From: Candidatus Methanoperedens sp.
GTDB lineage: Archaea; Halobacteriota; Methanosarcinia; Methanosarcinales; Methanoperedenaceae
Direction: 5' to 3'
DNA: 32,000 bases
Assembly (NCBI GenBank): GCA_041494705.1
Contig: JBGQBI010000001.1
Coordinates: forward strand, 120,001 to 152,000
Below, one piece after another: positions 27,799 to 28,617 of this stretch. A program made the translations under genes and the position numbers. Below the pieces are notes generated by a model that was not told the DNA's origin, did no database searches, and saw only the letters and a program-made list of their open reading frames with translations. Numbering within the stretch: the stretch's first letter is position 1; every line of letters begins with the position of its first letter.

Positions 27799-28617
27799 CT
27801 AATAATACAAATTAAATGTGTGATATTCACCCGCATTGATATCATCAATATCCATGGCAATAATAATTTTGGTTGATCCTATGGCAGAAAAGGCAGTTGA
27901 AAGCTGTTTGGATCCTATTTTAGCTATAAAGTCGGAAGCATCGTAAGGAATCATATGTGCCGAAACGCCAGCTTTATCTGTGGAAAAGCAAAAACTGACT
28001 CGGTGGCAACACTCTGCTAACATTGTCACTTTTTCTCCAACTATATCTCGCAGCAGTGCGTTCTGTTCGCGAATCTCATAATCGTGCATAACAGGATAGA
28101 CCTTTAAAGCCGACGCTCCGGAAAATACGAAATCAAACCCGAAAAGGAATCCCTTGTGAACCTTAAGGCGACGAGCATTGGGTGAAATACCTGCAAAGCC
28201 AAGAGCGCGTGTTTCCATAGCCGGGTAATCTCCCACAATGTGCCACAGTTTGATTCTCGATGAGGCAATATCCGGTCTCAGGTCTATACCGACTACGTTA
28301 TAACGCACTTTTTCGTATAGAAAATCTGTTCCTGTTACCTCATGATACAGTGAACGATATATAGGAGCCATTTCAGCATAATGCCCTAAAAAGGCAACTA
28401 TTTTAGGATTAAGACTGAATCCTCCACTATTCTTGTACCAAAGGTTAAACCGCAATGGATGCACGGTGTCGCCACATACTTTACAGGAGCATTCCAAATG
28501 AGCTTCGGGCGAAGCCCTCAATAAATCCAGAAATGGAACGCAAAGCGGTGTTGCTTTGGATGCAAAGGATGTCAAGTGCCTGCGGTATTTTTCTATTTGC
28601 ACATTGGATGATTGCAT
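27799..28617 (-). CDS. ABBA (PT-barrel) peptide prenyltransferase-like protein, cyanobactin LynF/TruF/PagF-type motifs
   Basis: 272 aa. Five spaced beta-hairpin-like repeats are visible: LECSCKV...RFNLWY; VGIDLRPDIASSRIKLWHI(VGDYP); FGFDFVFSGASALKVYPV; VSFCFSTDKAGVSAHMIPY; IIAMDIDDINAGEYHTFNLYY (C-terminus). The blocks SCK...RF.L, GIDLR...SS.K, DYP, GFDF.F.G and a terminal LYY resemble cyanobactin prenyltransferases as I remember them. No search was run. Confidence 0.5.
   Translation of the reverse strand: MQSSNVQIEKYRRHLTSFASKATPLCVPFLDLLRASPEAHLECSCKVCGDTVHPLRFNLWYKNSGGFSLNPKIVAFLGHYAEMAPIYRSLYHEVTGTDFLYEKVRYNVVGIDLRPDIASSRIKLWHIVGDYPAMETRALGFAGISPNARRLKVHKGFLFGFDFVFSGASALKVYPVMHDYEIREQNALLRDIVGEKVTMLAECCHRVSFCFSTDKAGVSAHMIPYDASDFIAKIGSKQLSTAFSAIGSTKIIIAMDIDDINAGEYHTFNLYY

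Follow-up and report, generated by a model that had tools for sequence, protein, structure and literature searches.

A stretch of 32,000 nucleotides (nt) from Candidatus Methanoperedens sp. (contig JBGQBI010000001.1, positions 120,001 to 152,000), referred to here as the window, raises the question of why a methane-oxidising archaeon carries a gene whose 272-amino-acid (aa) product resembles the cyanobactin-family ABBA peptide prenyltransferases, and which molecule that product might modify. An earlier note, made from the sequence of the window alone, had drawn attention to the reading frame and proposed that the enzyme prenylates Trp57, His58 or Trp59 of an adjacent peptide. Here, family models, alignments, structure prediction and comparison with other genomes were brought to bear on this question. 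It appears likely that the 272-aa protein is a competent, soluble F-family prenyltransferase (PT)-barrel enzyme, encoded by the third gene of a four-gene Methanoperedens/Methanosarcinales operon that matures a ribosomal peptide. Judged from sequence, the most likely function would be prenylation of the Trp/His tail of a peptide processed by a radical S-adenosylmethionine (rSAM) enzyme, and the cassette as a whole probably makes a cross-linked, lipid-tagged small peptide. The features concerned are listed in Table 1.

Table 1. Positions of the prenyltransferase cassette, its parts and the isoprenoid operon in the window
Feature	Position	Strand	Description
F-family (cyanobactin-type) ABBA/PT-barrel peptide prenyltransferase homologue	27799..28617	-	272 aa, ATG start; family models, alignments, AlphaFold2
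Dimorphic prenyltransferase segment	27817..28395	-	residues ~75-267, hairpins 2-5; nucleotide homology lost; window is type A
Radical SAM/SPASM peptide maturase candidate	28639..30072	-	477 aa; Pfam Radical_SAM E 7e-15, SPASM E 4e-10
FAD-dependent amine-oxidase-family oxidoreductase	26564..27787	-	407 aa, last cassette gene; Pfam Amino_oxidase E 4e-20, NAD_binding_8 E 1e-8
Precursor peptide gene	30226..30405	-	59 aa; conserved leader and C-terminal core CSSCANGWHW, then stop
Small stem-loop (GTGT...ACAC)	30191..30205	-	directly 3' of precursor stop; RNAalifold, 10 loci
Larger hairpin in precursor-rSAM spacer	30128..30183	-	inverted repeat I4, 16-nt arms, 94% complementary
Cassette as homology unit	26517..30696	-	blastn against other genomes
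Mevalonate-pathway operon	10473..15659	-	mvk, ipk, type-2 IDI, RNase J, polyprenyl synthase

The reading frame was borne out in position, length and start codon. Its product contains the motif blocks LECSCK (residues 41-46), GIDLR (110-114), SRIKLW (120-125), GFDF (160-163) and NLYY (269-272), which had been singled out previously and which align with the same blocks in solved peptide prenyltransferases. Two of the residue ranges given in the earlier note are shifted by one (VVGIDL...WHI occupies 108-127 and FLFGFDF...YPV 157-176). Membership of the family is supported by significant matches to profile hidden Markov models (HMMs). Pfam PF19156 (DUF5838; InterPro IPR031037) is matched with E = 4.2e-18 and 66.2 bits, above the gathering score of 28.8, and is present in all close homologues of the protein. 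The NCBIfam model TIGR04445 (LynF/TruF/PatF peptide O-prenyltransferase) is matched with E = 3.7e-20 and 72.5 bits, a score that does not reach the curated cut-off of 140 bits, and on this account the protein is best placed as a distant member of the superfamily, outside the curated LynF/TruF/PatF subfamily. The affiliation put forward in the earlier note, namely with the cyanobactin-family ABBA peptide prenyltransferases, holds at the level of the F-family superfamily (PF19156 and the fold described below) and fails for the LynF/TruF/PatF subfamily and for the cyanobactin pathway.

A search with phmmer of the sequences in the Protein Data Bank (PDB) gave as best match KgpF (8ye0), the kawaguchipeptin Trp C-prenyltransferase (PMC7973389), with E = 4.9e-22 over residues 27-272. 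Alignments over approximately the full length were obtained with KgpF, SmiF, FjoF, Fl3F and LimF, while that with DciF covers residues 35-231 and those with PagF and PirF are partial. When a profile of the archaeal clade was compared with the PDB, the scores were 146 bits for SmiF, 142 for KgpF, 141 for both Fl3F and FjoF, 115 for LimF and 111 for DciF, followed by lower values for PirF (86), PagF (81-82) and, weakest, PatF (22.8). The likeness to peptide prenyltransferases is far beyond chance.

The fold agrees with this assignment. An AlphaFold2 model built from a 23-sequence alignment (mean predicted local distance difference test score, pLDDT, 92.7; predicted template-modelling score, pTM, 0.89) has ten strands arranged in five helix-flanked hairpins, with strand pairs at residues 40-48/51-62, 104-112/121-128, 157-164/169-178, 204-212/218-224 and 252-256/267-271. 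The five hairpin units that the earlier note had read from the sequence correspond to these ten strands, helices flanking each pair, and the model is a 10-stranded PT barrel of the kind predicted there, superposing on KgpF, LimF and PagF with template-modelling (TM) scores of 0.87-0.92. Two of the outcomes that the earlier note had named as refuting its proposal, a lack of significant HMM matches and a different predicted fold, are thereby ruled out. In Foldseek, LimF is matched with E = 6.6e-21 and TM 0.90, KgpF with TM 0.92 at a root-mean-square deviation of 2.0 Å and ~22% identity, PagF with TM 0.87 and PirF with TM 0.83; DciF and PatF are also matched, whereas DMATS and the small-molecule ABBA enzymes reach just TM ~0.6.

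Conservation was evaluated against the whole superfamily, which in an exhaustive HMM search comprised only 212 clusters (50% identity) among 1.84 billion representatives; one of its members, P0085, is FjoF-like. Positions conserved in at least 80% of 125 full-length outgroup members and identical in the window protein number 17, all of them kept by the window protein and by the archaeal clade: E42, S44, K46, R56, G110, D112, R114, S120, R121, K123, G160, D162, G167, K172, Y174, Y271 and Y272. An eighteenth conserved position, residue 259, carries a conservative E-to-D change. Within the 23-sequence alignment (A1), which includes both of the allele types described below, 15 of the conserved positions are invariant and S44 is near-invariant, G167 also being among the invariant ones. 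We infer that these residues form the diphosphate/Mg2+-binding and catalytic set of the barrel. The retained residues, together with purifying selection, predict an active protein. It could nevertheless be argued that the protein is a structural relic or a peptide-binding chaperone rather than an enzyme, like PatF (PDB 4bg2), an inactive family member that resides within a cluster for a ribosomally synthesised peptide that undergoes post-translational modification (RiPP), and 272 aa is indeed somewhat shorter than the solved chains (283-321 residues). Such a loss of activity is very improbable, considering that the superfamily-conserved residues are all kept, that no PDB match is weaker than PatF (22.8 bits, where KgpF and SmiF reach 141-146), and that both alleles are under purifying selection.

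The identity of the substrate is approached through the genes that accompany the enzyme. The rSAM stop codon lies 21 nt before the prenyltransferase, and 11 nt separate the prenyltransferase stop from the start of the oxidase. The order precursor, rSAM, prenyltransferase, oxidase is found wherever a locus extends far enough, at prenyltransferase identities ranging from 96% to as low as 42%, with protein sizes of 475-485 aa for the rSAM/SPASM protein, 269-276 aa for the prenyltransferase and 406-415 aa for the amine oxidase. This synteny supports the connection to the adjacent peptide and rSAM gene that had been suggested earlier. A quite different possibility is that the enzyme prenylates an unrelated small aromatic metabolite and that its adjacency to the peptide and rSAM genes is meaningless. 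The tie between enzyme and peptide rests on gene context, and cyanobactin prenyltransferases take small molecules in vitro (PMC11002830); with complete synteny in all far-reaching loci, gaps of 11-21 nt and four genes that move together, however, this is extremely improbable.

Close relatives of the prenyltransferase form ~29 protein clusters at 42-95% identity, after which the score falls from 306 to 208 bits. Ten loci occur in GTDB species genomes, all of them metagenome-assembled genomes labelled Candidatus Methanoperedens, 'uncultured archaeon', Methanosarcinales or Methanosarcinaceae, and the cassette clade is restricted to Methanoperedens and other Methanosarcinales. The locus in the closest genome (L012, 97.5% nt identity) matches the window continuously over the cassette unit only (Table 1), with a further 74 nt at 26084-26157; for the other loci, blastn homology extends from ~26560 to ~30440. 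The genes that flank the cassette in the window, encoding aspartyl-tRNA synthetase (AspRS), a UbaA-type E1 protein, a TusA-like protein and SMC, are missing from all other loci, even at 97% nt identity. The four-gene cassette is a discrete unit of ~4 kb that moves between genomic contexts. Marks of a mobile element at its edges were considered and rejected: the window contains no tRNA gene, and no convincing repeats flank the cassette. In one locus (L001, 12151-13768) the oxidase gene is immediately followed by genes for a UbiA-family membrane prenyltransferase and for a FilR1/HVO_A0261-type regulator; both are absent from the window and from the other loci.

The presumed substrate is a small peptide encoded ahead of the rSAM gene, whose ATG has AAGGAGGTG upstream. 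Its leader contains the conserved motif KG(I/L)xALQKALxAKNVxVD, and the Trp57, His58 and Trp59 named in the earlier note are indeed its last three residues. The 45 distinct precursors constitute one family, 42 of which end exactly in CxxCANGWHW followed by the stop codon; the three exceptions each differ by a single residue (N to Y, N to H and W to C). C50 and C53 vary no more than W57, H58 and W59 do. In the precursor of L031 the leader is just 35% identical while the core is the same. No NCBIfam or Pfam model matches the peptide. At the DNA level, a motif coding for CANGWHW is found upstream of the rSAM gene in all 18 prenyltransferase loci that cover this region, and one coding for ANGWHW occurs once in the window and in none of 100 shuffles. 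A scan of metagenomes for the core-coding motif gave 17 matches, of which five are true precursors (L031, L033, L035, L037 and L038) and the remainder chance matches in other reading frames. Three soil metagenome contigs (L030, L032 and L034) encode ...SNRG(L/I)SPHGCANGWHW ending at a stop codon but lack both the CxxC pair and the leader, and these tails are probably chance matches in an alternative frame of another gene. Two tandem precursor genes, both with the CANGWHW tail, precede the rSAM gene in L019 (4170-4190 and 4424-4444) and L037 (~2529-2790).

The spacer between the precursor and rSAM genes holds two predicted stem-loops (Table 1). The small one is kept in 10 of 10 loci, and three of its four predicted pairs show compensatory changes in RNAalifold; the larger hairpin is confined to close Methanoperedens loci in the corresponding alignment (A3). 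These elements may serve as signals for processing or attenuation, by which the amount of precursor is balanced against that of the enzymes.

The rSAM protein carries CX3CX2C at C137/C141/C144 and eight further Cys between residues 370 and 466, all invariant in 11 orthologues, behind an N-terminal domain of ~124 residues whose type was not recognised; a Pfam search of the N-terminal 128 residues (E ≤ 10) found no RiPP recognition element (RRE) or PqqD domain. No NCBIfam family cut-off is reached. The mycofactocin maturase MftC gives the best match, with 58 bits where the cut-off is 265, other weak matches are GeoRSP, AlbA, WgkB and PqqE, and the scores lie below the cut-offs of the sactipeptide and ranthipeptide maturases (AlbA 49.8 against 850, SkfB 29 against 300, SCIFF maturase 26 against 425). 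Among PDB sequences only SkfB (8e-7) and PqqE (1e-3) are matched. The feature set of sactipeptides and ranthipeptides is present, that is, an rSAM protein of SPASM type together with Cys donors (C50 and C53) in the core. The oxidase, dependent on flavin adenine dinucleotide (FAD), gives weak NCBIfam matches to HpnE, protoporphyrinogen oxidase (PPOX) and the CrtI family, all below cut-off, and its matches to PDB sequences are mostly limited to the N-terminal dinucleotide-binding region.

This combination of partners brings to mind pathways such as those of mycofactocin, pyrroloquinoline quinone (PQQ) and the pearlins, in which the peptide would be a scaffold or carrier and an excised or rearranged Trp/His fragment would be prenylated; oxidative deamination or aromatisation would then fall to the oxidase, while the prenyl group would serve as a membrane anchor. 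The core is essentially invariant in the 45 precursors while leaders and enzymes diverge, which is typical of cofactor precursors and unlike the hypervariable cores of cyanobactins, and an aromatic residue always stands right before the stop codon. Moreover, MftC is the best NCBIfam match of the rSAM protein and PqqE is matched too, an amine-oxidase-type flavoenzyme is always present, and there is no conserved exporter. On the other hand, the rSAM matches are far under their cut-offs, as the MftC score illustrates, and no conserved peptidase, RRE chaperone or other partner of mycofactocin or PQQ type accompanies the cassette. The patchy distribution and varied genomic contexts fit an accessory trait better than a core cofactor, and two deeply diverged prenyltransferase alleles are hard to square with a single essential cofactor structure. 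A cofactor pathway is accordingly regarded as quite unlikely. In comparison with the systems of SkfB, AlbA, MftC and PqqE, the likeness consists of CX3CX2C with the full SPASM Cys set and of a core with two Cys donors and a C-terminal aromatic residue, whereas all family scores are far below cut-off and no RRE/PqqD was detected. Mycofactocin in particular shares only the general logic of an invariant C-terminal aromatic tail, an rSAM/SPASM protein and an oxidase; its precursor ends in Val-Tyr and is accompanied by MftB and MftD/E/F, while the archaeal peptide ends in Trp-His-Trp and no such partners are conserved. To our knowledge, no member of the sactipeptide/ranthipeptide, mycofactocin or PQQ systems contains a prenyltransferase.

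For prenylation of the Trp/His tail, the following process can be proposed. The conserved helical leader of the precursor would be bound first, and the rSAM/SPASM protein would cross-link the invariant decapeptide CxxCANGWHW, most likely through thioethers formed by both Cys or through a C-C bond to a Trp. The prenyltransferase would hold a Mg2+-isoprenyl diphosphate in the barrel via its conserved Arg, Lys, Asp and Tyr residues and ionise it, and the allylic cation would be captured by the indole of Trp57 or Trp59 or by the imidazole of His58. Subsequently, the FAD amine-oxidase-like enzyme would oxidise the peptide or the prenyl chain. Trp57, His58 or Trp59 is a plausible acceptor because these residues are near-invariant and KgpF, the closest characterised sequence relative, is a Trp prenyltransferase.

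Several points weigh against this process. The TIGR04445 score is only half of the curated cut-off, and the characterised relatives are just 19-23% identical in a structure-based alignment, so that neither residue specificity nor donor specificity can be transferred from them. The pocket-floor residues H239 and W273 of LimF align with I223 and I252 of the archaeal enzyme, and this comparison sets no donor length, given that KgpF, a C5 enzyme, has H and V there. As the rSAM protein and the oxidase lack close characterised relatives, the steps assigned to them are guesses. Neither a protease nor an exporter is conserved in the cassette, and in the window and loci L001-L010 no protease was found either within the cassette or in the genes called around it. 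Classical F-family enzymes, furthermore, use leaderless peptides that are already macrocyclised. A precedent outside cyanobactin pathways is provided by MppC, for which Trp is prenylated after macrocyclisation with the leader still attached, and family members in such other pathways can need the leader (PMC12715784; PMC13290415).

The two invariant Cys and the free C-terminal carboxylate also count against Trp/His prenylation in being alternative nucleophiles. In the same pathway, the acceptor could be a Cys thiol of the CxxC pair, the carboxylate or a nucleophile created by the rSAM protein. The invariance of C50 and C53 equals that of the aromatic residues, Trp59, with its free carboxylate, is always the last residue of the peptide, and the enzyme is too distant from characterised members for its specificity to be read from theirs. 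F-family enzymes also prenylate the N- and C-termini of peptides, as in muscoride biosynthesis. Nevertheless, for the rSAM/SPASM protein the obvious substrates are the Cys residues, the closest characterised sequence relative prenylates Trp, and no Cys S-prenylating F-family enzyme is listed in the reviews consulted (PMC12715784; PMC13290415), which makes an acceptor other than Trp or His decidedly unlikely.

If the Trp/His tail is the substrate, it is met by two forms of the enzyme. When the cassette of the window was compared with those of L001, L010, L018, L019, L005 and L006, nt homology was wholly or mostly lost over the segment 27817-28395, while the flanks remained 82-93% identical. For L001/L017, L010/L011 and L019, the DNA is 84-93% identical over the oxidase and over the rSAM gene with the first ~74 prenyltransferase codons; L018, L005 and L006 show the same break with boundaries that are slightly different or less complete. 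Most of these loci share almost identical positions for the two breaks in homology, the neighbouring rSAM and oxidase genes being ~76-93% identical. At the protein level, the window and L001 share 92% identity in the rSAM protein, 91% in the oxidase and 57% in the prenyltransferase, and the corresponding values for L018 are 91%, 92% and 54%. Over residues 81-272, type A proteins (the window and P0001-8) are 83-95% identical to the window and type B proteins 76-90% identical to P0009, whereas identity between the types is 39-45%; over residues 1-80, both types are 66-95% identical to the window.

The ratio of nonsynonymous to synonymous substitution rates (dN/dS) is 0.19-0.40 within each type, with dS like that of the neighbouring genes. 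Between types, dN reaches 0.57-0.62 over residues 75-267 and synonymous sites are saturated, whereas dS is normal in residues 1-74. With purifying dN/dS within types, saturated dS between them and conserved flanks, types A and B are two old barrel alleles exchanged by recombination, not the outcome of rapid local evolution. The conserved catalytic set is present in both. Near-fixed differences on the barrel strands are Y106C, R206W, S208N, A220L, M222L and A254S, and some differences fall at or beside pocket positions in the alignment to LimF; score differences between wild-type PagF and F222A would, indirectly, place PagF F222 against column 208, which is Ser in type A and Asn in type B. The two alleles probably differ in which prenyl group they add to the shared core peptide or in where they add it, which is the simplest idea for a dimorphic enzyme with an invariant presumed substrate.

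Comparison with known systems places the cassette at some distance from all of them. KgpF, SmiF (9vt8), FjoF (9vtb) and Fl3F (9vta) are the best matches in sequence and structure and have in common with the archaeal enzyme the blocks ECSCK, G(I/V)D.R, SR.KLW, GFDF and N.YY. As with KgpF, the candidate substrate contains Trp. KgpF, however, is cyanobacterial and acts on a leaderless head-to-tail macrocycle produced by PatA/PatG-type proteases, whereas the archaeal enzyme has rSAM/SPASM and amine oxidase partners, an archaeon as host and an invariant linear C-terminal tail as its candidate substrate. No publication on SmiF, FjoF or Fl3F was found in the literature searched. LimF (His-C2 geranyltransferase, 7vmw/8je4) and PagF and PirF (Tyr-O prenyl- and geranyltransferases, 5tty/6pgm) have the same fold and the same Arg/Lys/Asp/Tyr set, and the candidate core offers a His between two Trp, which recalls LimF. 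Their profile scores are lower, they belong to cyanobactin pathways, and the pocket floor of LimF differs. A cyanobactin pathway was rejected for the archaeal cassette: PatA/PatG proteases are lacking, and the invariant core lies at the C-terminus with no follower sequence, unlike the PatE-like precursors of cyanobactins, in which recognition sequences flank hypervariable cores.

F-family enzymes as a group prenylate Trp, His, Tyr, Ser, Thr and Arg (PMC12715784; PMC13290415) and also act in lanthipeptide and lasso pathways (PMC12715784). With MppC, the lanthipeptide and lasso enzymes and NctPC of a proteusin-type cluster, the archaeal system has in common that a PT-barrel enzyme has been recruited outside the cyanobactins; those enzymes, however, are bacterial and are partnered by lanthionine synthetases, lasso cyclases or terpene cyclase domains. 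In the literature searched, no report was found of an F-family enzyme with rSAM/SPASM and amine oxidase partners, nor of one in an archaeon, and no paper connects either this enzyme family or the GWHW motif with archaea or Methanoperedens, which is weak evidence given that many subscription papers lay outside the search.

The nearest outgroup members of the superfamily occur in other surroundings. In L022 (P0031) these are a B12-binding rSAM protein, two more rSAM proteins and DUF483; in L024 (P0034) a Nif11 precursor, FAD_binding_4 oxidases, a glycosyltransferase, an S10 peptidase and an ABC transporter; and in L025 the prenyltransferase gene (P0030) adjoins an archaeal RNase P p30 gene. Because these loci show other RiPP-like contexts, recruitment of the F-family fold extends generally to varied peptide pathways, and an rSAM neighbour is not peculiar to the archaeal clade described here. 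Many superfamily members (P0040, P0045-P0048, P0058, P0059, P0078, P0109, P0112 and others) are fusions of 560-920 aa with the prenyltransferase domain at the C-terminus and ~300-650 unrecognised residues at the N-terminus.

The nearest functional analogues of the archaeal cassette are found elsewhere. In ComQ/ComX of Bacillus and PalQ/PalX of Paenibacillus, a Trp in the short C-terminal core of a ~55-80-aa precursor is prenylated, and in PalX this Trp is strictly C-terminal (PMC10853753). The modifying enzymes of these systems have the isoprenyl-synthase fold, though, and not a PT barrel. Between conserved flanks, the comQX locus shows polymorphism, a situation similar to that of the two prenyltransferase alleles described here. 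ComX cores vary by pherotype, whereas the archaeal core is invariant, and no histidine kinase is conserved beside the cassette. A more specific interpretation can be formulated on this basis, although it must be called unlikely: the product would be a ComX-like archaeal prenylated peptide, a signal or recognition molecule whose cross-linked core is decorated differently by the two barrel alleles, and recombination would swap these alleles between near-identical cassettes and give Methanoperedens populations at least two chemical 'dialects'.

As regards the remainder of the window, the operon of mvk, ipk, fni and idsA reported in the earlier note is present (Table 1), its IDI and polyprenyl synthase genes being separated by an inserted RNase J-type beta-CASP gene. 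The caution expressed there that its proximity may be coincidental was well founded. The operon lies 12 kb from the cassette, behind the SMC and AspRS genes, and adjoins no other cassette, and it was rejected as a part of the system. At 16922-18289 on the forward strand, a 455-aa protein with an eCIS_core domain (PF13699, E = 2e-30) is encoded in a GC-rich stretch (17000-19000); this segment has 54-57% GC, as compared with 39-52% in the remainder of the window, and may be a foreign insertion.

The archaeal branch of this known family is new, and the combination of genes was not found described in the literature searched. PT-barrel peptide prenyltransferases are prized as catalysts of late-stage lipidation and have been characterised almost wholly from cyanobacteria and a few other bacteria. 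An archaeal clade that acts together with an rSAM/SPASM protein and a flavin oxidase on a Trp-His-Trp tail would bring the family into a third domain-level setting and give it a new class of RiPP scaffold. Since archaeal cells are rich in long isoprenyl diphosphates, the enzyme may also take donors longer than the usual C5 and C10 donors of the family, and this would be of value in biocatalysis. Of the new facts, those of most interest are the dimorphic barrel and the invariant core, and two diverged barrel alleles working on the same substrate would constitute a ready-made experiment on the determinants of donor specificity and regiospecificity. Anaerobic methanotrophic archaea of group 2d (ANME-2d) matter in methane cycling, and their secondary metabolites and peptide signals are almost unexplored. 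If true, the ComX-like interpretation would provide the first prenylated RiPP from Archaea and the first polymorphism of peptide pheromone type in a methane-oxidising archaeon.

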